Virus record (IMG/VR): IMGVR_UViG_3300033149_002577
Strand: one strand, 5' to 3'
DNA from: a virus
DNA length: 62,207 bases
Both the position numbers and the translations under genes were made by a program. The notes under the pieces were generated by a model that worked only from the letters and a program-made list of their open reading frames with translations, searched no databases and had not been told where the DNA came from. Within the stretch, counting starts at the first letter, position 1, and each line of letters opens with the position of its first letter. Of this stretch, positions 1,632-32,919 are shown in pieces.

Positions 1632-3278
1632 ATGGCGATCCTAGACTTTCTCAAACCGAAAAATAATGAACCGGCATCAGCTCCGATGCTCCCGCAGGTG
1701 CCGTTACGCCAGCTTATCGACGGCGAGAGGCGAGCTGAGCTCCTTGTGCTCCTATCCCATCTTCGAGGCTCTCAGCATACGCACAAACGCTACGACTGGG
1801 ACGCACGGCTGATATTCGGAAGCGATAGCCTCGTCGACGTTCCGATCGATCAATACGTCCCGATGAAACGCCGTCAGCCCTGCGTTTCCCTCCGGCTCGG
1901 AAAGGTAATCGTCAAGCGTTTGACGACGATGGTTTTCGGCCACGACCGCTTCCCGATGCTGACTATCAACGGTGACGCGGAGGCCGAAGACTTCGTCCAA
2001 GAGCTCGCCAAAATGTCCAAGCTCCGAACGAAGATGGTTGAGGCCAGGGACAAGGGCGGGGCCTGCGGATCGGTGATCCTTTCGTGGGGTTTTGTCGACG
2101 GCAAGCCGGTGATTGATGTTCATTCGGCGCCGCTGATTGACGTACTTGAATGGGCGGATTTCGAGAATCGAAAACCCGGGAAGGTCCTCAAAGCCTACGA
2201 CTTCAGAAAACAGGTTTACAGGCCCGACGGAAGGCCCGAGACAAAGACATTTTGGCAGGTTCGATACTGGGATGAAGAAGTCGATATCTCGTGGGAGCCG
2301 ATCCCTGACGACGTTGCAGCTACAACAGGCTGGCAATCATGGCCCTCGAAAACAATCAGGCACGGGCACGGATCATGCCCAATGATCTGGGTTCAGAATA
2401 TCGCCGATTCGGACGAGACCGATGGGATTTGTGATGCCGATGGACAGCACGCGGACTTCGACGAGATGGACCGGTTAGCGAGCGCCACCGAGCGAGGGAC
2501 GATCCTCAACGTCGATCCGACTCTCGTGATTCGAGACCACAAAGGCAAAGACGAAACCGTCATCAGGAAGGGCTCTGGGACGGTCATTTATTCACCTGGT
2601 GGAGCCGAGTATCTCGAGCTTAACGGGTCGGCTGTCGAGGCGTCGAAGTCTCTCCTGCAATCCATCAAACAAAGCGAACTCGACGAGGCCGAGGTTGTGC
2701 TTCTTGACCCTGAGAAGCTCAGCGGAGCCGGAGTGTCAGCGGCAGCCCTCAAAGTCCGCTACGCCCCGATGCTGGCCAAGTGCGACCTCCTTCGAGACCA
2801 ATATGGAGAGGCGATCATCGAGGTGCTCCGGGTCATGCTCGAGACAGCGAAGCGGCTTCAAGAGGTCTCCGTCGACGAAGAGGGCGTCAGGTATTGGTCG
2901 AAGGTTGAGATGGAGCCAAGGATCGAGCGAGTGGAGCCCGAGGAGGGCGAAGAAGCCGGCGTTCTGCTCGTTGAGCGCACTCCTGGGACGAGCGAGAATA
3001 TCAGCTTGAAATGGCCGCCATACTTCCCCGCGACGTGGCAGGATATGAAGGACGGCGTTGAGACCGCGAAGAACGCCACGGGCGGACAGCAACTTCTTTC
3101 GCAGAGGGCTGGCGTTGAGCTTATCGCACCTATGCTTGATATTGACGATGTAGACGACGAACTCGGACGCATCGAAGAGGACCAGAACGCTCAGAGCGAT
3201 CGGGCGAAGGCCATGCTCGAACTCGGTGCGCCGGAACCTCCAGGTAATCCGGTTGATGAGGACGATGAAGAGGAGTAA
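1632..3278 (+). CDS. Portal protein (candidate)
   Basis: 548-aa ORF between the terminase block and a Mu-F-like head gene, with an acidic C-terminal tail (VDEDDEEE). Assigned by size and synteny only. Confidence 0.55.
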   Translation: MAILDFLKPKNNEPASAPMLPQVPLRQLIDGERRAELLVLLSHLRGSQHTHKRYDWDARLIFGSDSLVDVPIDQYVPMKRRQPCVSLRLGKVIVKRLTTMVFGHDRFPMLTINGDAEAEDFVQELAKMSKLRTKMVEARDKGGACGSVILSWGFVDGKPVIDVHSAPLIDVLEWADFENRKPGKVLKAYDFRKQVYRPDGRPETKTFWQVRYWDEEVDISWEPIPDDVAATTGWQSWPSKTIRHGHGSCPMIWVQNIADSDETDGICDADGQHADFDEMDRLASATERGTILNVDPTLVIRDHKGKDETVIRKGSGTVIYSPGGAEYLELNGSAVEASKSLLQSIKQSELDEAEVVLLDPEKLSGAGVSAAALKVRYAPMLAKCDLLRDQYGEAIIEVLRVMLETAKRLQEVSVDEEGVRYWSKVEMEPRIERVEPEEGEEAGVLLVERTPGTSENISLKWPPYFPATWQDMKDGVETAKNATGGQQLLSQRAGVELIAPMLDIDDVDDELGRIEEDQNAQSDRAKAMLELGAPEPPGNPVDEDDEEE

Positions 3279-26463: not shown

Positions 26464-28539
26464 ATGGCCGATTATGATGTCAAAGCAAAACTAGAACTCG
26501 ACGCAAAGAAGCTCAAGAAGGAAGCCGCCAAGGCCGCCAAGGCCATCAAAAAGATCGAGTCTGAACTCGAACGAACGCGGAACAAGGGGCAAGCTGCATT
26601 GAACTCACTCGGCTCGGCCTTCAGCGGGCTCGGCCGAAGCATGCGAGGATCTCGGCTCGGTCTCGGTCGTATGGTCACCGGGCTCGTTGGTATCGGAGTC
26701 ACCTATTTCGGCATCCGAGCGGTTGGCGGTGCGATCCGGGACATCGCCGGGTACGCTGGAGAAGCCAACGCATCAGTCGAAAACCTCACGCTCTCTCTTG
26801 GTACGATCATGGCCGAGATCGAGGGGATTTCATTCGGCGAAGCTCAGACACAAGCTCACGGTCTTTACCGACAGATTCAGGACATCGCCATCGTGAGCCC
26901 AGGAACGGCCAAGGAGGTCGCCGACGTCTTCACTATGGCCTATGGACCCATGAGGCGAGCCGGTCAGTCGATGGACGACATCTTGAGACTCTCGCAGAAT
27001 GCTCTCAGTGTCGCCGCTGCTATGCGGATCGACCTACCGCAGGTCTCTCGAGACATTTCGATGATGGCGTCAGGTGTCGCGGGAACCGACGTCAAAACGT
27101 TCCGACTCCTGAAGTCGATGGGGATGATCACGAAGACCACCAAAGAATGGAACGAGATGGCGCTCGCTAATCCGACGGCCGCCGCTGCGGAGCTCACCAG
27201 GATCTTCGAGCAACTCGGTGGTCCGGCTGCTGAGGCTTTCGGGAATACGTGGGCCGGTGTCTCCTCGGCCTTCGGCGACCTCGTCCAAAATTTCGCGCGG
27301 ATCTTTGGAGGCGCTGCCTTCGAGCGCACCAAGGGAGCGCTCAAGTCGGTCAACGATTTCCTCCTGAAATACCGACGCAACCTTGAGAATGTGATGGAAT
27401 TCCTCGGCGAGAAGGTTGGCAACGTTTTCGGCCGAGTCTTCACGAAAATGGGCGAGGTATTTATCGGAATCACCAGCAACCTCGACGAGTTCGCCATCAA
27501 GATCGATACCGCGATCGCCAAGATCAAAGAGTTCCTCCCGGCCTTCAAAAAGATCGCGATTGGGATGGCTGCCGGGACGATAGGGATGAAAATTCTTGGG
27601 ACGGGCCTTTCTGTTATGGGTGCTGCTCTCATGGGGCTTTCCAGCCTTAGCGGACTTGGCGCACTTGGAATAGGAGCAGCCGGAGCCGGTGGAGCCGCTG
27701 CAACGGCCGTGGGTGGCGCTGGAGCCGTTGCTGGAGGCACGGGCATTGGTGCCGCTCTTGCCGCTGCCGGGGCGGCCCTCATGACCATAGTACCTATCGT
27801 GCTCGGCGTGGCCGGTGTGTTTACCGTTGTCGGGGCTTCTATTTATGCAATCTTCGACGACGCCAGCGAGGCAGTAATAGCGCTTTTCGAGCCGATATGG
27901 GGTGATCTCCAAGAGATCGGTTTGAATCTAATGGCTTTCTTCGGGTCAGTCTGGGAGCTTCTAGGCCCGATCTTCGGCATACTTGGCGCGGGCATCGTCA
28001 CACTTTCAGGAATAATTTTGCGTTTGTTGGTATCAGCCATTCGTGGTGCGAGCGAAACTTTGATGTGGTTTGGGGATGCGATCGAAATGGCCGCTGACGC
28101 CATCGGACCACCGCTTCAAATTGCCGCTGAACATATCGTTTTGTTTGGTAATGAGATTGCGAACTTCCTCGACGGGCCGTTCAGAACGTTCGCTCGTGTT
28201 TTTTCTTCGGTTGGTTTTACAGTGACACTCCCGAACTATGGAGCAGTAGAGAGGGCTCCAGACGGACCGGTTACAGGGTTGATTTCTGGTGTCCTTGATG
28301 AAGCACGCGCGGCCTTCGATGAGGTTCCTGAATCCCTTCGACCATCCGAAGAAGGAACCGGAGTAGCACCCCCCGGTCGCCCCGGAACCAACGTCGACAT
28401 GAGGGGCTCGAGAATCACCGTAAAACAGGAATTCAGAGAAGCCGATCCCGATCGAATTTGGATGCAATTTGTCGACGGGCTTTCGAGGGAGGCGGTGATT
28501 CGGACTCAGAGCGGTCTATTAAATCCACTCACCAGATGA
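26464..28539 (+). CDS. Tail tape measure protein
   Basis: 691-aa ORF after the chaperone pair. N-terminal coiled coil (KKLKKEAAKAAKAIKKIESELERTRNK) and Gly/Ala-rich hydrophobic segments. Confidence 0.7.
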   Translation: MADYDVKAKLELDAKKLKKEAAKAAKAIKKIESELERTRNKGQAALNSLGSAFSGLGRSMRGSRLGLGRMVTGLVGIGVTYFGIRAVGGAIRDIAGYAGEANASVENLTLSLGTIMAEIEGISFGEAQTQAHGLYRQIQDIAIVSPGTAKEVADVFTMAYGPMRRAGQSMDDILRLSQNALSVAAAMRIDLPQVSRDISMMASGVAGTDVKTFRLLKSMGMITKTTKEWNEMALANPTAAAAELTRIFEQLGGPAAEAFGNTWAGVSSAFGDLVQNFARIFGGAAFERTKGALKSVNDFLLKYRRNLENVMEFLGEKVGNVFGRVFTKMGEVFIGITSNLDEFAIKIDTAIAKIKEFLPAFKKIAIGMAAGTIGMKILGTGLSVMGAALMGLSSLSGLGALGIGAAGAGGAAATAVGGAGAVAGGTGIGAALAAAGAALMTIVPIVLGVAGVFTVVGASIYAIFDDASEAVIALFEPIWGDLQEIGLNLMAFFGSVWELLGPIFGILGAGIVTLSGIILRLLVSAIRGASETLMWFGDAIEMAADAIGPPLQIAAEHIVLFGNEIANFLDGPFRTFARVFSSVGFTVTLPNYGAVERAPDGPVTGLISGVLDEARAAFDEVPESLRPSEEGTGVAPPGRPGTNVDMRGSRITVKQEFREADPDRIWMQFVDGLSREAVIRTQSGLLNPLTR

Positions 28540-28580: not shown

Positions 28581-29249
28581 ATGACTATAAAACTAGAGAC
28601 TGGATTGGTTCTCGGGAAACTCACGATCACAGAAGACCTTCAGCGCAGAAGTCGCCATGGCGATAGGGTCTGGAGTGCAATCTGTGAATGCGGAATCATC
28701 ATAGAGGATACGGCATGCCACTTAAGAAAAAGAACATCATGTGGCTCACATATATGCAGAAAAATCAGAAGTGACACAAATGGCGGCTATGCACCAAACG
28801 ATGCAAGCAAGAGGATTCCTGAATATGGAATTTGGAGACTAATAAAACAGCGCTGTTGCAACAAAAACAATCCCGCGTTCGCTGATTATGGTGGTCGTGG
28901 GATATTCGTTTGTGATGAATGGATTCACAATTTCAAAGCTTTCATCGATGACATGGGAAGAAGACCAACGAAAGACCACCAAATAGAAAGAATCGATAAT
29001 TATGGACCGTATTCAAAACAAAACTGCAAATGGGCTACTCGTTTCGAGCAAGGATGTAACAAGCGAAATAATATATGGATGGAATGCAATGGAAAACGAC
29101 TGATTTTGGCCGAATGGTCAAGACAAACAGGGTTGCCTGAGAAAATGCTTCAGAATAGAAAGAGGGCTGGATGGTCTGATAATCGAGCATTGACTACGAT
29201 ACCAAAATCTGATCATCGTCGAAAAAAAATCATTTTGAATTTGCCGTAA
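28581..29249 (+). CDS. Free-standing homing-endonuclease-like / AP2-type DNA-binding protein
   Basis: Motif YGIWRLIKQRCCNKNNPAFADYGGRGIFVCDEW..F..FIDDMGRRP...IERIDNYGPYSKQNCKWATRFEQ.CNKRNN recurs in phage HNH/AP2-associated genes. The gene is visibly AT-richer than its neighbours. Confidence 0.5.
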   Translation: MTIKLETGLVLGKLTITEDLQRRSRHGDRVWSAICECGIIIEDTACHLRKRTSCGSHICRKIRSDTNGGYAPNDASKRIPEYGIWRLIKQRCCNKNNPAFADYGGRGIFVCDEWIHNFKAFIDDMGRRPTKDHQIERIDNYGPYSKQNCKWATRFEQGCNKRNNIWMECNGKRLILAEWSRQTGLPEKMLQNRKRAGWSDNRALTTIPKSDHRRKKIILNLP

Positions 29250-29306
29250 TTCTTGTCTTTTCTAGTCTTGTCGAATCGGTCCCTGTAAGTTCATGTCTAG
29301 TCCTGC

Positions 29307-29344
29307 TTGGTGCCCTACGATCACGAAAGCAACCGCAGGGCTTC
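29307..29344 (-). ncRNA. Hairpin element A1 (13-bp stem, tetraloop)
   Basis: 29312-29324 pairs with 29329-29341 around GAAA (29325-29328). Four A-C/C-A positions become G-U wobbles in the minus sense. Confidence 0.65.
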
Positions 29345-29453
29345 TTTTCTCATCCCGTCGTGTCGAATCCTGTCGAGTCGCATCTTGTCCAGTCCCGTCT
29401 CGTCCCGTTAAATCGTGTCTGGTCCGGCCCCATCGCATCTCGTCTAATCATGC

Positions 29454-29488
29454 TTGGCACCCCACCGCAACGAAAGCCACGGGGCATC
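29454..29488 (-). ncRNA. Hairpin element A2 (degenerate copy)
   Basis: Same TTGGCAC...CGAAAG...GGGGC layout, but the lower stem is weaker. Confidence 0.45.
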
Positions 29489-29558
29489 GGGTCTTGTCTC
29501 GTCCAGTCACGTCGCGTCACGCCTGGTCTCGTCCGGTCTTGTCAGGTCCCGTCAAGCC

Positions 29559-29598
29559 TGGCACCCCTGAACCCCGAAAGAGGTCTAAGGGTATCGAG
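29559..29598 (-). ncRNA. Hairpin element A3
   Basis: 29563-29575 pairs with 29580-29592 around GAAA. Three C-A/A-C positions and one G-T position. Confidence 0.55.
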
Positions 29599-29670
29599 TC
29601 TTTTCTTGTCCCGTCTCATCACGTCGTGTCTCGTCCGGTCCCGTCACGTCCCGTCACGTCTCGTCAGGTA

Positions 29671-29708
29671 TTGGAGCCCAACCAAAGTTTCACGTTTGGC
29701 CGGGCCTC
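29671..29708 (-). ncRNA. Hairpin element A4 (type II loop)
   Basis: GCCC-aa-CCAAA ... TTTGG-cc-GGGC with loop GTTTCACG. The flanks TTGGAGCCC / GGGCCTCTTGTC are shared with type I. Confidence 0.55.
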
Positions 29709-29785
29709 TTGTCGCGTCTTGTCCGGTCTTGTCAGATCCTGTCACGTCTAATCAAGTCCGATCTCGGCTCGTCCGTTCATGTAAA

Positions 29786-30325
29786 TCATGAAAGTAGCAG
29801 CCACTCAGCGAGCAACCCTTTATCAGCGGACTCCCCCTTGTCCGCAAGTTTTTGAATCGTTTTCGGCTTCGACGCCGCTTGAATTAGATGTGCATGAACC
29901 GCCAGAGAATTCGCCCGTGATCGTTCACCGGTGGAGAGCTCGCTCATGTCAGCGCTTGCAACCACGACGCTCGCAGTCTTCGCCCTTCGGCCGGCCCTGC
30001 ATATCTCGGCCTCTGTCCTCTCAAGTCGCTCTCTGGCGTCGAGGCACTTGATACGGCCTTCTTTCCTAACCCGTTGCCAGAGCACTAGATGCTTCCTCAA
30101 AACGTGCTTGATGGCCGAGTTGAGCATTCCGTACCCCTGGCCGCTCGGGTCGACCTTTTGAAGATCCCCTGGCCAGTCCTCATCGACAATGAAGTCGCCA
30201 GGTGTCCCGACCTCGAGGACGCGGATAAACCGCGAAGTCTTCGGCCCGGAATTCCCGTAGACCGGGCCTTCGTAACCATCCTCTGAAATCTCATTTAGTC
30301 TTTCGACTACTTCCTCTTGGCTCAT
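29786..30325 (-). CDS. Orphan protein P179 (179 aa), embedded between arrays A and B
   Basis: ATG preceded by AGAAAGGAAAGAAA. Acidic N-terminal half and an Arg/Lys-rich helical C-terminal half (RKHLVLWQRVRKEGRIKCLDARERLERTEAEICRAGRRAK). No family recognised. Confidence 0.7.
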   Translation of the reverse strand: MSQEEVVERLNEISEDGYEGPVYGNSGPKTSRFIRVLEVGTPGDFIVDEDWPGDLQKVDPSGQGYGMLNSAIKHVLRKHLVLWQRVRKEGRIKCLDARERLERTEAEICRAGRRAKTASVVVASADMSELSTGERSRANSLAVHAHLIQAASKPKTIQKLADKGESADKGLLAEWLLLS

Positions 30326-30413
30326 TTTCTTTCCTTTCTAGGCAAATGATTTTCGTGTCGGGTCAGTTCTAATCGTGTCCTGTCAAGTCAGGTCTTGTCA
30401 TGTCGTGTCGCGT

Positions 30414-30451
30414 TTGGTGCTCCCTGCGACCGAAAGATCACGGGGAGCTTC
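30414..30451 (-). ncRNA. Hairpin element B1
   Basis: 30419-30431 pairs with 30436-30448 around GAAA. The stem sequence differs from B3 and C1 but pairing is retained (covariation). Confidence 0.65.
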
Positions 30452-30519
30452 TTGTCTCGCCGGGTCCGGTTTCGTCGTGTCGAATCATGTCGCATCGTGT
30501 CTCGTCGGGTCATGTCGAT

Positions 30520-30558
30520 TTCGGAGCCCGACCAAGTTTTCAAGCTTGACCGGGCCTC
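30520..30558 (-). ncRNA. Hairpin element B2 (type II loop)
   Basis: GCCCG-ac-CAAG ... CTTG-ac-CGGGC. There is a compensatory change relative to A4 (CCAAA/TTTGG versus CCAAG/CTTGa). Confidence 0.55.
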
Positions 30559-30632
30559 TTGTCTCGTCTTGTCGGGTCCGGTCTTGTCGCGTCTCGTCTC
30601 GTCCGGTCGCGTCTTGTCATGTCGCATCGTGC

Positions 30633-30670
30633 TTGGAGCCCACGGCCACCGAAAGGCAACCGTGGGCCTC
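30633..30670 (-). ncRNA. Hairpin element B3
   Basis: GCCCACGG (30638-30645) pairs with CCGTGGGC (30660-30667). The three inner C-A/C-A/A-C positions all become G-U in the minus sense, giving an uninterrupted 13-bp helix. Confidence 0.75.
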
Positions 30671-30749
30671 TTGTCTTGTCGTGTCTCGTCCTGTCGAGTC
30701 ACGTCTTGTCAAGTCCTGTCGCGCCGGGTCGTGCCGTGTCGCGTCCATG

Positions 30750-31376
30750 TTATTCAATGATCTCAAATTTAAAGTTCTCAACCCGGAAGATCCCATGATC
30801 GCCGCCATTGGTCCCGGGCCTATTACAGCCGATTCCGACTTGGTAGCCGGCAGTTTCCAGGGTTTCGCTGATCATCTCAGGGTGCTCGATGATATCGGCA
30901 TCGACGACCATGAACCCGATCGCGATATTCCACGGCGGATCGATCTCAGGGAAACATCGAGGCACCCTCTTTGAGCCGCCTCTTGTCCCGTCGCTTGGTA
31001 CGGAAATCGTTCGACCGATCACGTCATCGATATGAACCGGCTCAAGCTTCTTACTTTCATCGTTGATGGCGTAGACCAACGTTTCCGGCGCTGTCGGGTC
31101 GGTCATGATCCCGCTCTTGAATCGTGCGGTGAAAGTCGACCTGTTCTTACCGGGGACCTTGTCGTTTCGGAGCTTCGAGGCCTGCTCCATGCCGAGCTTG
31201 AAGGCGATCGGCGGAACCAAAACCAGGTCGTCTTTGTTGATGTGACACCGTTCTCGCCAGCACCTCTTATCCTGCGCCTCTGCCGATTCCTTTCCCTTTC
31301 GCGGGCTCTGAAACATGCGCCCGAATGTCAGTGTGGTTAGTCCGATAATGTCCGCGCTAAAGATTCCTCTTCTCAT
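30750..31376 (-). CDS. Orphan protein P208 (208 aa), embedded between arrays B and C
   Basis: ATG preceded by CGAAAGGAAAGAGCAAG. Coding-like composition. The C-terminal region contains VVDADIIEHPE and NGGDHGIFRV. No family recognised. Confidence 0.7.
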   Translation of the reverse strand: MRRGIFSADIIGLTTLTFGRMFQSPRKGKESAEAQDKRCWRERCHINKDDLVLVPPIAFKLGMEQASKLRNDKVPGKNRSTFTARFKSGIMTDPTAPETLVYAINDESKKLEPVHIDDVIGRTISVPSDGTRGGSKRVPRCFPEIDPPWNIAIGFMVVDADIIEHPEMISETLETAGYQVGIGCNRPGTNGGDHGIFRVENFKFEIIE

Positions 31377-31461
31377 CTTGCTCTTTCCTTTCGTTAGTTA
31401 AAAAACTTCAATTCGCGTCCTGTCAGATCCGGTGCCGTCCTGTCACGTCTAGTCGGGTCAG

Positions 31462-31500
31462 TTTGGAGCCCACAACCACCGAAAGATAGCTGTGGGCCTC
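31462..31500 (-). ncRNA. Hairpin element C1
   Basis: 31468-31480 pairs with 31485-31497 around GAAA. Three A-C/C-A positions become G-U in the minus sense. Confidence 0.75.
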
Positions 31501-31587
31501 GTGTCGTGTCGCGTCACGTCCGGTCGGTCCGAATCTGATCTTGTCAAGTCACGTCGGGTCCTGTCAGGTCCCGTCTGGTCCCGTCTG

Positions 31588-31627
31588 GTTTGGAGCCCTC
31601 GCCGACCGAAAGATCAGCGGAGGCCTC
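31588..31627 (-). ncRNA. Hairpin element C2
   Basis: 31595-31607 pairs with 31612-31624 around GAAA. Three C-A positions and one T-G position. Confidence 0.65.
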
Positions 31628-31723
31628 TTGTCTTGTCGTGTCTCGTCCTGTCTCGTCGTGTCTCGTCACGTCGATTCTTTCCAAAAATGGTGGCCCTCAG
31701 CGGTCAACTTCGAGGTTGTTGGC

Positions 31724-31788
31724 TGCGACACCGTCCCGCTTCGGACCATAAAAATGTTGTTTTGTCTCCTCTTAGTTTCCGGTGTCGC
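31724..31788 (-). promoter_or_regulatory. 9-bp inverted repeat at the predicted 5' end of the cassette transcript
   Basis: GCGACACCG (31724-31732) and CGGTGTCGC (31780-31788), separated by 47 nt, lie immediately downstream of the leftward -10. Confidence 0.4.
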
Positions 31789-31795
31789 AATTCTG

Positions 31796-31824
31796 ACTAT
31801 ACGCGTTGACGCGTACCGTAGCAA
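31796..31824 (-). promoter_or_regulatory. Leftward promoter of the cassette: TTGCTA-17-TATAGT with the perfect operator palindrome (31800-31815) in the spacer
   Basis: Minus-strand -35 is the reverse complement of 31819-31824. The -10 is the reverse complement of 31796-31801. The 16-bp TACGCGTTGACGCGTA occupies the spacer. Confidence 0.6.
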
Positions 31825-31836
31825 GCTTTTTTTTCG

Positions 31837-31848
31837 CTGTGATATCCT
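31837..31848 (+). promoter_or_regulatory. Extended -10 box CTGTGATATCCT, 6 nt upstream of ATG 31855
   Basis: The identical 12-mer with identical spacing occurs before terS (59424-59435). TGaTATCCT fits the TGnTATAAT class. No SD. Confidence 0.5.
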
Positions 31849-31854
31849 CCAACC

Positions 31855-32919
31855 ATGAGCGAACCTCTTTCCATCGTCGAAACCACAGGGTCCGAACGCG
31901 GCGTTGAGCTAAACAATAGAGCCCTTCCTTTTAAGGGCGTTTCCTTCGCGGGCGAACAGCGATCCGAGAAGACAAACTACCCCGGAAATCCAGTCTCAAC
32001 GCTTCAGGTCCTCGGACCAAATGAACTCCCGACTGAAATGCAGGGCCGATGGAAAGATCAATTTCTTTACGGGATGGTTACGCTCACAGGCTGGGATGCA
32101 ATCGTCTCCGATGGTGAGCACCCGTCGGCCGAGCAGCTCGTAAAAATCTTCCATATCCTTCGCCGATCCGGGAACCTGCTCGAGGTGCGGTGGGGGCCGG
32201 AGATTCGCCGTGGCATCCTGAAACGGTTCGATCCTATCTATGACCGTGTCGACGCTGTTCGCTGGAATATGACCTTCGAGTGGACCCAATTCGGGACCGC
32301 TCAAGCGAGCCAATTCACCGGCGTTCAGCCGACGGAATCGATGTCGGCCGAACTCGCTGCAACCCTCGCCGCGCTCAACGACCTCACCTCGGGCATGCCT
32401 CAGATTATGTACCCGACCTTCGCCGATGACCTGCTCGAGCTTCAAGGCCTGATCATGGTCGCCGCCATCGCCCTCATGGAAGCCAACGCGGAAGTTCAGG
32501 GCACCCCGGAGGTTACTCAAGATGAATTCCAAGGCGTCGCTTCAAGAGCGGCCGACGTCGTTGCAAGCTGCGAGGTCATGCGGCAAGCGTTGGACGTCCC
32601 TGGAACCGAACTCGTGCCTACTGACGACGTCTCAAGCGTGCTCGCTGGCAGCACCTGGTCGAAGGACACGATGAAAGCCCTCGTCGAACTCGCTGTGGCC
32701 GCTGTGAGGACTCGCGAAATGATCAGGAACAGAACGGTTTCAGAATACCTTGCCGACATTAGGCTAAGAGAGAGTCAAACACTCCGAGACGTCTCCAGAG
32801 AATACTACGGCGCCGCTGACGACTGGACGATCATTGCCAACGCTAACGGGCTCATCGGCAGCATCCACGACGCCGGAACCCGTATCCTTGTTCCTCGGCA
32901 ATCATGGAGCACCTCTTGA
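31855..32919 (+). CDS. Tail/baseplate protein with a C-terminal LysM domain (gpX / DNA-circulation-like position)
   Basis: C-terminus YYGAADDWTIIANANGLIGSIHDAGTRILVP fits LysM. First gene of the baseplate block. Confidence 0.55.
   Translation: MSEPLSIVETTGSERGVELNNRALPFKGVSFAGEQRSEKTNYPGNPVSTLQVLGPNELPTEMQGRWKDQFLYGMVTLTGWDAIVSDGEHPSAEQLVKIFHILRRSGNLLEVRWGPEIRRGILKRFDPIYDRVDAVRWNMTFEWTQFGTAQASQFTGVQPTESMSAELAATLAALNDLTSGMPQIMYPTFADDLLELQGLIMVAAIALMEANAEVQGTPEVTQDEFQGVASRAADVVASCEVMRQALDVPGTELVPTDDVSSVLAGSTWSKDTMKALVELAVAAVRTREMIRNRTVSEYLADIRLRESQTLRDVSREYYGAADDWTIIANANGLIGSIHDAGTRILVPRQSWSTS

Follow-up and report, generated by a model that had tools for sequence, protein, structure and literature searches.

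Nine similar hairpins lie on one strand of a viral DNA, raising the question of what they are for. The window analyzed here is the whole 62,207-nucleotide stretch of record IMGVR_UViG_3300033149_002577, from a tailed phage, and its genes include portal, tape-measure, HNH, and tail genes. The hairpins belong to a leftward (minus-strand) island at 29248 to 31824, inserted with the tape-measure and HNH genes on one side and the distal tail genes on the other, that consists of two genes and three blocks of candidate guide arrays. The first-pass annotation was silent on the purpose of the hairpins; the tracts of pentamers between them are the informative part. Repeats of this kind are known from VIPR (Viral Interference Programmable Repeat), a CRISPR-like system of RNA-guided DNA silencing described in 2026 (bioRxiv 10.64898/2026.04.26.720920 and 10.64898/2026.04.26.720927). 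The published VIPR guide, or vrRNA, is about 100 nt in total and carries 9 to 16 repeats of a conserved triplet plus a hypervariable NN, with an invariant structured 3' tail (bioRxiv 10.64898/2026.04.26.720920). The features of the island are listed below in leftward order; vrRNA numbers denote predicted guides, and bits are scores of the covariance model described below.

31796-31824, minus: candidate sigma-70-like promoter of the leftward unit, TTGCTA-17-TATAGT, 9/12 consensus match, weak
31623-31677, minus: array C_a, 11 GAC/NN pentamers in a strict 5-nt period, guide part of vrRNA 1
31595-31624, minus: hairpin C2, 3' tail of vrRNA 1, 13-bp stem, UUUC loop (match at 31587-31629, 52.1 bits)
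31496-31590, minus: array C_b, 12 + 6 pentamers, guide part of vrRNA 2, with a GGACC phase break at 31526-31530
31468-31497, minus: hairpin C1, 3' tail of vrRNA 2 (53.8 bits)
31405-31459, minus: array C_c, 11 pentamers without a hairpin; its GAATT GAAGT UUUUU end lies immediately upstream of the ribosome-binding site of vipr
30750-31376, minus: vipr, 208 aa, predicted Cas7-like RAMP with G-loop GIGCNRPGTNGGDHG (profile, hhalign, AlphaFold, Foldseek)
30666-30745, minus: array B_a, 16 pentamers, guide part of vrRNA 3
30638-30667, minus: hairpin B3, 3' tail of vrRNA 3 (54.7 bits)
30554-30628, minus: array B_b, 15 pentamers, guide part of vrRNA 4
30526-30555, minus: hairpin B2, type II, 8-nt loop, 3' tail of vrRNA 4 (41.8 bits)
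30447-30516, minus: array B_c, 14 pentamers, guide part of vrRNA 5
30419-30448, minus: hairpin B1, 3' tail of vrRNA 5 (49.1 bits)
30350-30419, minus: array B_d, 14 pentamers without a hairpin; its GAAAA end lies upstream of the 179-aa gene and its ribosome-binding site
29786-30325, minus: putative vap-like accessory gene, 179 aa, with homologues directly after vipr in relatives
29704-29783, minus: array A_a, 16 pentamers, guide part of vrRNA 6
29676-29705, minus: hairpin A4, type II, 3' tail of vrRNA 6 (43.2 bits)
29591-29670, minus: array A_b, 16 pentamers, guide part of vrRNA 7
29563-29592, minus: hairpin A3, 3' tail of vrRNA 7 (42.4 bits)
29484-29558, minus: array A_c, 15 pentamers, guide part of vrRNA 8
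about 29459-29485, minus: hairpin A2, degenerate, 3' tail of vrRNA 8 (40.1 bits)
29340-29449, minus: array A_d, guide part of vrRNA 9, 22 pentamers with a more degenerate repeat than in the other arrays
29312-29341, minus: hairpin A1, 3' tail of vrRNA 9 (50.7 bits)
29248-29302, minus: array A_e, 4 + 6 degenerate pentamers without a hairpin, at the island end, directly adjoining the convergent HNH gene at its stop codon

The hairpins are RNA structures of the minus strand

All nine paralogous hairpins of the first-pass annotation are present at the sites it gave, within 29304 to 31629. The seven type I copies, of which A2 is degenerate, share a 13-bp stem closed by GAAA, which reads UUUC on the minus strand; the type II hairpins A4 and B2 keep the same outer 11 pairs and carry a different loop of 8 nt. 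The mismatches cited for B3 (30646/59, 30647/58, and 30648/57) were read directly on the plus strand as C-A, C-A, and A-C, and those for C1 (31475/90, 31477/88, and 31479/86) as A-C, C-A, and C-A. When the nine copies were aligned on the minus strand, double changes were found in 11 of the 13 pairs, which bears out the compensatory covariation claimed earlier. Standard pairs filled 94.7% of the 114 stem cells on this strand versus 64.9% in shuffles, none of 500 of which reached the observed value, and the covariation score was 0.818 versus 0.256 in shuffles. As a control, the 3' partner was slid by 1 to 3 columns, and pairing dropped to 30 to 50%. Read on the plus strand, the same stem columns paired in 75.4% of cells, with a covariation score of 0.421. 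RNAalifold, which the first-pass annotation had proposed for both strands, gave -24.58 kcal/mol for the minus strand versus -8.3 kcal/mol for the plus strand, with covariation terms of -3.75 (15 pairs) and -0.37, respectively. Individual hairpins also folded more stably on the minus strand than on the plus strand: C2 at -22.2 versus -13.3 kcal/mol, C1 at -23.7 versus -12.2 kcal/mol, B3 at -26.7 versus -20.8 kcal/mol, and A1 at -21.7 versus -9.5 kcal/mol. The fold of A2 was weaker, at -13.7 kcal/mol.

The distribution of wobble pairs indicates the same strand. The 13-bp core contains 26 G-U cells on the minus strand versus 4 on the plus strand, close to the first estimate of about 20 versus 4, and a hairpin finder that scored G-T and A-C alike favored the minus strand by 32 to 11 (binomial P = 0.002). 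This asymmetry can be understood only if the structure forms in single-stranded RNA with the sense of one DNA strand; selection on RNA pairing, and not on sequence, explains both the covariation of the stems and the restriction of G-U pairs to the minus strand. A covariance model trained on the nine copies matched exactly those nine in the 62-kb window, all on the minus strand. In relatives, the same model matched 14 more hairpins, each of them in the sense orientation of the homologue of the 208-aa open reading frame (G-U 20 versus A-C 6; P = 0.009), so that 23 of 23 hairpins in the whole clade lie on the vipr sense strand. The earlier caveat that the plus-sense loop is a classic GNRA tetraloop has lost weight, since the relatives keep CUUUCG on the sense strand or have loops that are non-GNRA on the antisense strand. 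These data establish the nine hairpins as real minus-strand RNA structures. Pairing, RNAalifold, the G-U tests, and the strand used in relatives all agree with the proposal that they form on the transcript that carries the two genes. The leftward promoter proposed for that transcript at 31824 to 31796 fared less well: the site is there, with its 9/12 consensus match, but it is weak, as a consensus scan found 3 such sites versus 1.6 expected in shuffles. No U-tract follows the stems, and therefore the hairpins are not intrinsic terminators.

The repeats and hairpins might instead act at the DNA level, as centromere-, stoperator-, or origin-like iterons for a DNA-binding protein with the hairpins as cruciforms. 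Short intergenic repeats in the same orientation are typical of stoperators and partition sites, and the accessory protein faintly resembles winged-helix regulators. A cruciform is strand symmetric, however, and G-U versus A-C counts are 26 to 4 in the core, 32 to 11 with the hairpin finder, and 20 to 6 in relatives. The stems also covary as their sequence drifts, and the repeats are always on the vipr strand. We consider DNA-level iterons highly improbable.

The 208-aa gene encodes a predicted homologue of SUSP1 Vipr

The two genes of the island that the first-pass annotation called orphans are read here as vipr and its putative accessory gene. A profile of the 208-aa family searched against the PDB had a single match, 36pp, "SUSP1 Vipr protein" (E = 2.9e-5), with the G-loop inside the aligned stretch. 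When compared by hhalign with Vipr of phage Andreotti (Felixounavirus), of which a 63-aa fragment is identical to SUSP1 Vipr, the probability was 95.9% (E = 5.6e-9, 154 columns). The AlphaFold model of the 208-aa protein has a pLDDT of 90.6, and its best Foldseek matches are type VII Cas7 and Csm3 (E of about 1e-6, probability 1.0). By profile and by modeled fold, then, the 208-aa gene is a homologue of SUSP1 Vipr and a Cas7-like RAMP, in a family of 1,834 cluster representatives. A characterized Vipr is a small RAMP that combines an RRM core with a glycine-rich loop and a thumb. SUSP1 Vipr holds the second G of the triplet specifically through R138 and W178 (bioRxiv 10.64898/2026.04.26.720920 and 10.64898/2026.04.26.720927). 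The residues aligned with these here are F142 and N185 and the triplet is GAY, not GGY, so RNA recognition must differ in detail.

The 179-aa gene is a putative vap-like accessory gene, assigned by synteny: homologues of 178 to 190 aa (24 to 47% identity) directly follow vipr in seven related contigs. The protein had no Pfam, PDB, or PADLOC match and matched no named vap or DNA-binding family. Its AlphaFold model has a pLDDT of 74, and the fold matches are weak and nonsignificant, several being winged-helix regulators.

Relatives fix the order of array and hairpin

In one relative (L125) the order is vipr, an array of 15, a hairpin, and vap, and in another (L211) an array of 26 is followed by a hairpin and vipr. 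In L123, L207, L210, and L211, an array begins 3 to 13 nt past the vap stop codon and is followed by a hairpin. The gene-flanked arrangements in L125 and L211 fix the order as array and then hairpin, which makes the hairpin the counterpart of the SUSP1 3' pseudoknot cap. In the Andreotti locus, which encodes the identical Vipr fragment, 13 to 17 GGYNN units plus a tail of some 50 nt occur in the sense orientation of vipr, both upstream of vipr and downstream of vap. Among the fetched loci, 104 distinct Vipr homologues adjoin GTCNN/GACNN arrays (117 loci with a match).

Two further arrangements were seen: in L035, pentamer arrays of this kind stand between a number of small genes, and in L123, an IS605-family TnpA/TnpB pair adjoins the system. 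Both, like the position of the island as a leftward insert between the tape-measure/HNH and distal tail genes, would suit selfish or recombinogenic repeats (MITE- or REP-like, or PeSL cassettes of T4-type phages) flanking mobile gene cassettes. Such repeats would not account for co-occurrence with one specific protein family at more than 100 loci or for a unit structure that matches experimentally characterized vrRNAs, and terminal inverted repeats and target duplications are absent. We give this explanation very little weight.

The pentamer arrays have the form of guides

The three intergenic blocks, and only these, contain 178 pentamers, GAC/NN on the minus strand, in a strict 5-nt period. 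They form 12 arrays of about 11 to 22 units each, all on the vipr strand; nine are hairpin tailed, and three (C_c, B_d, and A_e) lack a hairpin. Information content is 1.63 bits at G1, 1.74 at A2, 0.94 at Y3, 0.10 at N4, and 0.04 at N5. The triplet is GAC in 123 of the 178 units, GAU in 21, GAA in 13, and GGC in 6, with a pyrimidine preferred at position 3 (C 78%, U 12%). The NN strings are unrelated between arrays. Arrays of seven or more perfect GTCNN/GACNN repeats were found in at least 120 viral contigs; reading them as VIPR explains these striking (GTCNN)n tracts and is useful for genome annotation.

Long plus-strand open reading frames (29293 to 29751 and 30375 to 30974) cross the blocks, as they would if the repeats encoded five-residue periodic protein repeats. 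Such frames are expected by chance, however, because GTC periodicity seldom makes stop codons. The period is 5 nt and not 3, with two positions free, the interspersed hairpins covary as RNA, no family matches were found, and related arrays are noncoding in the published systems. A coding role is hardly credible.

Alternatively, the hairpins and repeats could be cis-regulatory RNA of the two-gene operon (attenuators, stabilizers, processing sites, or TRAP-like leaders) and not trans-acting guides. TRAP-type proteins bind triplets spaced by 2 to 3 nt, and the elements sit in the 5' untranslated region and intergenic spaces of the operon, with hairpinless arrays directly upstream of both ribosome-binding sites. 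Against this, the neighboring protein is predicted to be homologous to Vipr, whose guides consist of just this kind of repeat, and most arrays in relatives are found past the last gene. Every array differs from the others at its hypervariable NN positions, which fits guides and not one shared regulatory site, and the missing U-tract speaks against intrinsic terminators. We therefore regard a purely cis-regulatory role as unlikely.

The locus as a probable VIPR system

The island combines a Vipr homologue, sense-strand pentamer arrays, a structured 3' tail, and a viral context without CRISPR or cas. An Rfam search of the window gave no CRISPR repeats and no match of any kind, and PADLOC gave no match. 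No direct repeats split by unique spacers, as in class 1 CRISPR-Cas, were found, nor were cas-like genes other than the single RAMP. In the published description, the triplet is GGY or one of the alternatives listed in the Methods, NNNGG, YNNNG, and NNNNG (YNNGG register), "or a related consensus" (bioRxiv 10.64898/2026.04.26.720920). In that register the triplet here is CNNGA, which is absent from the alternatives listed in the Methods; given the wording "or a related consensus," GAY is treated as a variant and not as an exclusion. Taken together, 29248 to 31824 is very probably a leftward VIPR system with a Cas7-like Vipr, a vap-like protein, three guide blocks, and hairpin-tailed vrRNAs; the most likely role of each hairpin is to close a guide RNA of pentamer repeats at its 3' end.

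By analogy with the published systems, we propose that the island is transcribed, that its guides are processed and assembled into protein filaments, and that these target DNA with a 1-nt skip; the kind of biological target is proposed on the same basis. In SUSP1, a 3' pseudoknot caps the RNA, and the protomers and R-loop grow from it 3' to 5' (bioRxiv 10.64898/2026.04.26.720927). A complete vrRNA here would be about 107 to 127 nt, with a 5' tract of 11 to 22 GA(C/U)-NN pentamers and a 3' hairpin, the triplet constant and the NN varying from unit to unit within each guide. By homology with SUSP1, one Vipr protomer would bind each pentamer, flip out the constant triplet, and present the NN bases, which would jointly read a double-stranded DNA target with every third base skipped. 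Target binding would silence transcription, probably in competing phages or other mobile elements. The hairpin would act as a structured cap that marks and protects the guide 3' end and sets the end of the protein filament, and hairpins may also mark cut boundaries in a multiguide precursor.

A search for natural targets in the window and across 1.4 Mb of fetched loci found none, and exact blocks of 9 to 10 NNx dinucleotides gave only chance-level matches in seven IMG/VR scans and one genome scan. The published VIPR systems likewise report no self-target, and under their rule NN dinucleotides read DNA with a 1-nt skip, the skipped base usually being the codon wobble (bioRxiv 10.64898/2026.04.26.720920). 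The NN composition here leans slightly, though not decisively, toward sense codon positions 1 and 2.

Diversity of the constant triplet

Close Vipr homologues adjoin sense-strand arrays built on GGC, GAC, GUU, GUC, CGC, and CUC. The residue at G-loop position 184, aligned with SUSP1 D177, follows the second base of the triplet: 24 of 24 GGC systems have Arg there and 32 of 34 GAC systems have another residue, and the two states are interleaved on a neighbor-joining tree. One contig (L148) has a single vipr, of the Arg-184 type, flanked by both GAC arrays and GGC arrays, an arrangement suggestive of two tandem systems. We tentatively propose that the locus may represent a VIPR lineage whose handle code switched from GGY to GAY and that the constant triplet may in general be an evolvable, protein-matched code, a reading to which we give somewhat less than even chances. 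If it is true, VIPR systems would be mutually orthogonal, each protein loading only its own guides, and the GAY type with hairpin tails would form a subtype not reported before, distinct in its recognition chemistry.

VIPR has been described as a system from which CRISPR effectors may descend and as a very small platform for programmable DNA binding (bioRxiv 10.64898/2026.04.26.720920 and 10.64898/2026.04.26.720927). Such a system is recognizable from sequence alone when a Cas7-like gene is accompanied by pentamer arrays and by covarying 3' hairpins whose G-U pairs point to one strand. New here is a well-defined variant in which the triplet is GAY and the tail a stem-loop, and in which one phage carries nine predicted guides. 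Natural triplet diversity (GGC, GAC, GUY, CGC, and CUC) and a candidate specificity residue are also indicated and, if confirmed, would offer orthogonal guide/protein pairs for engineering and a clue to the evolution of RNA specificity in RAMPs.

Comparison with known systems

Like VIPR type II of Escherichia phage SUSP1 (structures in bioRxiv 10.64898/2026.04.26.720927, PDB 36pp) and of a Pseudomonas fulva prophage, the system is phage encoded, with a single RAMP of about 200 aa that is homologous by profile and fold, a small adjoining gene that is putatively accessory, and no cas genes or CRISPR array. Its predicted guide genes likewise lie in tandem in flanking intergenic DNA on the sense strand, as pentamers of a constant triplet plus hypervariable NN with the position 3 pyrimidine kept and a structured 3' tail. 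Unlike SUSP1, it has a G-A-Y triplet in place of G-G-Y (GGC in 6 of 178 units), and its tail is a simple hairpin (13-bp stem, UUUC loop) where SUSP1 has a 3' pseudoknot. It further differs from VIPR type II in that an array can reach 22 repeats, that three untailed arrays accompany the nine tailed guides, that an extra guide block lies between vipr and vap, and that the putative accessory protein is unrelated in sequence to anything named.

With class 1 CRISPR-Cas, in which a Cas7/Csm3 filament forms on the crRNA, the locus shares the RAMP fold (Foldseek E of about 1e-6 to Csm3 and type VII Cas7) and, by homology with SUSP1, a backbone of one protomer per short RNA segment with periodic base flipping. 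Both have a conserved structured element that caps the variable part of the guide, and in both tandem units are probably cut from a precursor. Unlike class 1, the locus has no spacers, cas1/cas2, Cas6, or Cas10. Its period is 5 nt with 2 informative bases, not 6 nt with 5, and its conserved part is interleaved with the guide, whereas in class 1 it flanks the guide. Published VIPR also binds double-stranded DNA without a PAM-like requirement, unlike class 1 (bioRxiv 10.64898/2026.04.26.720920 and 10.64898/2026.04.26.720927).

The (G/U)AG-NN leader repeats bound by TRAP in Bacillus trp operons are similar in that RNA triplets 2 nt apart are each taken by one oligomer subunit. The TRAP fold is unrelated, as judged from the RAMP assignment alone; TRAP spacers carry no information, and TRAP is a cis-regulatory attenuator of one operon.

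Pentamer arrays in a leftward island

The window is a contig of a tailed phage. The hairpins lie in a leftward island, composed of two ORFs and three non-coding blocks, between an HNH endonuclease gene and the next tail gene.

Features of the island and its surroundings
1632-3278, rightward structural genes: portal gene
26464-28539, rightward: tape-measure gene
28581-29249, plus strand: HNH endonuclease gene (PHROG 374/3377, E about 1e-46)
29248-29783, minus-strand island: block A, non-coding
29786-30325, minus strand: 179-aa ORF
30350-30745, minus-strand island: block B, non-coding
30750-31376, minus strand: 208-aa ORF
31405-31677, minus-strand island: block C, non-coding
31855 (start): next tail gene, the island's other neighbor

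The whole island is inserted in a moron-like manner, with the tape-measure and HNH genes on one side and the distal tail genes on the other. The HNH gene is convergent on it, and its stop codon touches the last pentamers. Both small genes have the leader motif GAAAGGAAAG(A) (30326-30349 and 31377-31404, minus strand) 6 to 8 nt before the ATG, and this motif is probably a shared ribosome-binding site. Rfam searches gave no match to the whole window at the gathering threshold or to 29200-31900 at E<=1, no tRNAs were found in the window, and the region had no blastn match among GenBank phages.

The blocks are built of pentamers, written NNGTC on the plus strand and GACNN on the minus strand. In total, 178 units form 12 arrays of 11 to 22 units each. 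The period of 5 nt is strict, the spacings from GTC to GTC being nearly all multiples of 5, and a comparable density of GTC tracts is found nowhere else in the 62 kb. The NN strings are unrelated between arrays (median best identity, 0.44). An off-register pentamer, ggtcc on the plus strand and GGACC on the minus strand, breaks two arrays at 31526-31530 and 29278-29282, dividing C_b into 12 and 6 units and A_e into 4 and 6. In L035, a locus of another phage, arrays show comparable breaks of 5 nt (tcacc, ctacc, taacc, and ggacc). Two plus-strand ORFs, 29293-29751 (152 codons) and 30375-30974 (199 codons), traverse the repeat blocks and could be mis-annotated by gene callers; such ORFs are expected as artifacts because GTC-periodic sequence seldom makes stop codons.

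Hairpin stems covary on the minus strand

Nine hairpins (A1 to A4, B1 to B3, C1, and C2) are located between the arrays. The first-pass annotation had proposed that their stems show compensatory covariation and that their mismatches point to a minus-strand RNA, and the mismatch positions that it named were confirmed by direct reading of the sequence. In single-sequence folds, the minus strand was more stable in eight of the nine copies, with B2 equal; A1 folded at -21.7 kcal/mol on the minus strand versus -9.5 kcal/mol on the plus strand, and C1 folded at -23.7 versus -12.2 kcal/mol. Pairs were counted in an ungapped alignment of the nine copies, with the plus strand scored on the same columns.

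Pairing in the nine-copy alignment (minus strand; plus strand)
Standard-pair cells: 94.7% of 114; 75.4%
Pairs changed on both sides: 11/13; 10/13
Covariation score: 0.818; 0.421
Score after shuffling: 0.256 (observed value reached in 0/500); 0.136

When the 3' partner was slid by 1 to 3 columns on the minus strand, pairing fell to 30 to 50%. With 11 of 13 pairs changed on both sides and a score well beyond that of the shuffles, the proposed covariation is real. RNAalifold, run on both strands, gave -24.58 kcal/mol for the minus strand (covariation, -3.75) and -8.3 kcal/mol for the plus strand (covariation, -0.37). In the 13-bp core, G-U cells numbered 26 on the minus strand versus 4 on the plus strand, and a strand-symmetric hairpin finder gave 32 versus 11 (p=0.002). 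Searched against the window, a covariance model of the nine copies matched exactly these nine sites, each of them on the minus strand. Pair counts, RNAalifold, the G-U tally, and the covariance-model matches thus bear out the minus-strand assignment.

Intrinsic terminators were dropped as an explanation because the hairpins have no U-tract. TRAP-like attenuation, integron attC-like sites, stoperators, and coding pentapeptide repeats were also considered and dropped.

The 208-aa ORF encodes a Vipr homologue

Neither small gene gave a usable result with Pfam, PHROGs, PADLOC, or NCBIfam, and tblastn of the 208-aa ORF against GenBank phages returned only matches at E>=0.09. A profile built from 20 homologues of the 208-aa ORF matched one sequence in the PDB, 36pp, "SUSP1 Vipr protein" (E=2.9e-5), with the match covering the region of the thumb and G-loop. 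The Felixounavirus phage Andreotti encodes a Vipr with a 63-aa fragment identical to SUSP1 Vipr, and profile comparison of the 208-aa family with the full-length Andreotti Vipr gave 95.9% probability over 154 columns. The AlphaFold model of the 208-aa protein (pLDDT 90.6) had its best structural matches among Cas7-type RAMPs (type VII Cas7 and Csm3; E about 1e-6, probability 1.0). The Vipr family comprises 1,834 representatives at 50% identity.

Vipr is a phage-encoded RAMP protein of ~20 kDa with an accessory gene, vap, alongside (bioRxiv 10.64898/2026.04.26.720920). In seven related contigs, the gene that immediately follows vipr is a homologue of the 179-aa ORF (24 to 47% identity), and the 179-aa ORF is therefore in the vap position. 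A fold search with the 179-aa protein gave no significant match.

The published guide, or vrRNA, is ~100 nt long and has 9 to 16 pentamers with a conserved GGY and hypervariable NN, followed by an invariant structured 3' tail (bioRxiv 10.64898/2026.04.26.720920). In the window, the information per repeat position is 1.63 bits at G1, 1.74 at A2, 0.94 at Y3, 0.10 at N4, and 0.04 at N5, a profile that fits the guide model. Pyrimidines dominate at position 3 (C, 78%; U, 12%), a preference shared with the Y3 pocket of SUSP1.

Relatives fix the order of array and hairpin

When tails were sought generically, as inter-array hairpins across all (GTCNN)n loci, they proved to differ from clade to clade and carried no strand signal (26 versus 22). 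The strand test was therefore restricted to the clade that shares the hairpin (L123, L125, L207, L209, L210, and L211). Here the search for further homologues yielded 14 hairpins, all 14 model matches being on the vipr sense strand, with 20 G-U versus 6 A-C (p=0.009), again in agreement with the first-pass annotation. The stems of these relatives differ much in sequence from those of the window, with the flanks (A-A/C-G-A-N-G-C-C ... C-C-A-A-G-C) kept and the CUUUCG loop mostly kept.

The order in the relatives is unambiguous, array and then hairpin. L125 runs from vipr to an array of 15, the hairpin, and vap; L211 runs from an array of 26 to the hairpin and vipr; and in four contigs the hairpin comes after an array that begins 3 to 13 nt past the stop codon of vap. 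The Andreotti locus is organized likewise, its sense strand carrying 13 to 17 GGYNN units and then a tail of ~50 nt both ahead of vipr and past vap. From this order and the Andreotti plan, it follows that the window encodes nine complete vrRNAs (array plus hairpin, 107 to 127 nt) and three untailed arrays. The hairpins are most likely explained as the 3' tails of VIPR guide RNAs, and we consider it very probable that the locus as a whole is a VIPR system with hairpin-tailed guides.

Untailed arrays (no 3' hairpin)
31405-31459, minus strand
30350-30419, minus strand
29248-29302, minus strand

Two of the untailed arrays immediately precede ribosome-binding sites, one that of vipr and the other that of the vap-like gene; the third lies at the island end. 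All three finish in degenerate GAAxx units (GAATT GAAGT; GAAAA; GAAAA GACAA GAATT) and may represent guides that lack a tail, guides in decay, or 5' leader elements. In other clades, there are arrays that end GACAA GACTT GATTT without any hairpin.

In L123 (2150-3730) and L124 (52-1632), an IS605-family pair lies ~270 nt upstream of the vipr homologue. The pair consists of a Y1 transposase (TnpA) and an OrfB/TnpB with a Cas12f1-like TNB domain, so that another RNA-guided element adjoins the VIPR homologue in these loci.

Target searches

All 12 guides were compared, with 0-, 1-, and 2-nt skips, with the window and 1.4 Mb of loci, and the best scores equaled those of shuffled controls. The VIPR system paper likewise reports no self-targeting (bioRxiv 10.64898/2026.04.26.720920). 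Larger collections were scanned with exact blocks of 9 to 10 dinucleotides from eight guides, seven against IMG/VR and one against genomes. In IMG/VR, blocks from B_a, A_a, and A_d had no matches, and those from A_c, C_b, B_b, and B_c had 1 to 5 matches, none extending past the searched block; the best block match, to sub-array C_b1, was 20/24 and not above chance.

Against genomes, guide A_b (29591-29670), read as NNx (two bases read and the next skipped), gave matches of 81 to 84% in three phyla; across L228, L232, L236, and L238 (Chloroflexota, Clostridiaceae, and Planctomycetota), the matched share of the site is 75 to 84%. The site lies antisense to the conserved VNRFPTDTD motif of formate-tetrahydrofolate ligase. 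We judged this match a coincidence because the wobble base is not the one skipped; the motif is a conserved housekeeping one. The NN composition of the window leans weakly toward sense codon positions 1 and 2, and that of other loci is flat. NNx targeting by the window's guides is still predicted and is not refuted by the exact-block scans.

Constant triplets vary among Vipr homologues

At least 120 IMG/VR contigs carry (GTCNN)n tracts of >=7 units. Many of the tracts adjoin Vipr homologues, and structured tails are often different or absent. A single-protein scan for related metagenome loci gave no matches, and an alignment-based scan recovered 80 loci encoding Vipr homologues of 31 to 55% identity, in which arrays are always on the vipr sense strand. 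Among close homologues (L127 to L206), the constant triplets are GGC, GAC, GUU, GUC, CGC, and CUC. In arrays of every triplet type, the last one to three units typically have the form "xxxAA" (e.g., CGCAA CGCAA, GTTAA GTTAA, and GACAA GACAA).

In an alignment of 71 homologues, residue 184 (Cys in the window), which aligns with G-loop residue D177 of SUSP1, is Arg in 24/24 GGC, 4/4 GUC, 4/4 CGC, and 2/3 GUU systems and is another residue (F, V, S, Y, or C) in 32/34 GAC systems, in counts that ignore kinship. The two states are interleaved on a neighbor-joining tree, which suggests repeated switches. Residue 184 is a candidate for the position that specifies the triplet's second base.

One 1643-nt locus, L148, has GAC/NN arrays (96-277 and 772-851) upstream of a single Arg-184 vipr (880-1425) and GGC/NN arrays (1438-1492 and 1539-1642) downstream of it. 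This arrangement suggests a tandem of two VIPR systems that differ in their triplets.

Proposed working and comparison with the published system

In the published system, the NN bases pair with double-stranded DNA, every third base being skipped, and transcription of competing phages is repressed (bioRxiv 10.64898/2026.04.26.720920). One protomer binds each repeat, with the triplet flipped out and held by the G-loop, thumb, and helix 1, and a 3' pseudoknot caps the RNA, from which protomers and R-loop extend 3' to 5' (bioRxiv 10.64898/2026.04.26.720927). Given the parts of the window locus, their homology, and their strand, its working can be proposed by homology. The leftward transcript or transcripts would be cut into single guides, and every GAY-NN tract would be covered by Vipr protomers, with one protomer on each pentamer. 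The hairpin would cap and protect the guide 3' end and set the filament end where target engagement starts; its stems would covary because only pairing matters. The NN string would read a double-stranded DNA target in the NNx register, and binding would lead to silencing.

The window differs from the published system in its triplet, tail, and layout. Its triplet is GAY rather than GGY, GGC accounting for only 6/178 units. Seven VIPR types are published, and the alternatives listed in the Methods of the preprint (NNNGG, YNNNG, and NNNNG) all retain the second G, whereas GAY does not. In SUSP1, the second G is held by R138 and W178 (bioRxiv 10.64898/2026.04.26.720927), which align with F142 and N185 in the window Vipr. 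Unlike in the published system, vipr and vap are separated by a guide block, as they also are in L125 and L209 but not in L121, L123, L207, L210, or L211. The tail is a stem-loop, whereas that of SUSP1 is a pseudoknot. VIPR was described in 2026; relative to the listed triplets and the SUSP1 tail, the GAY triplet and the stem-loop tail of the window locus are variant features.
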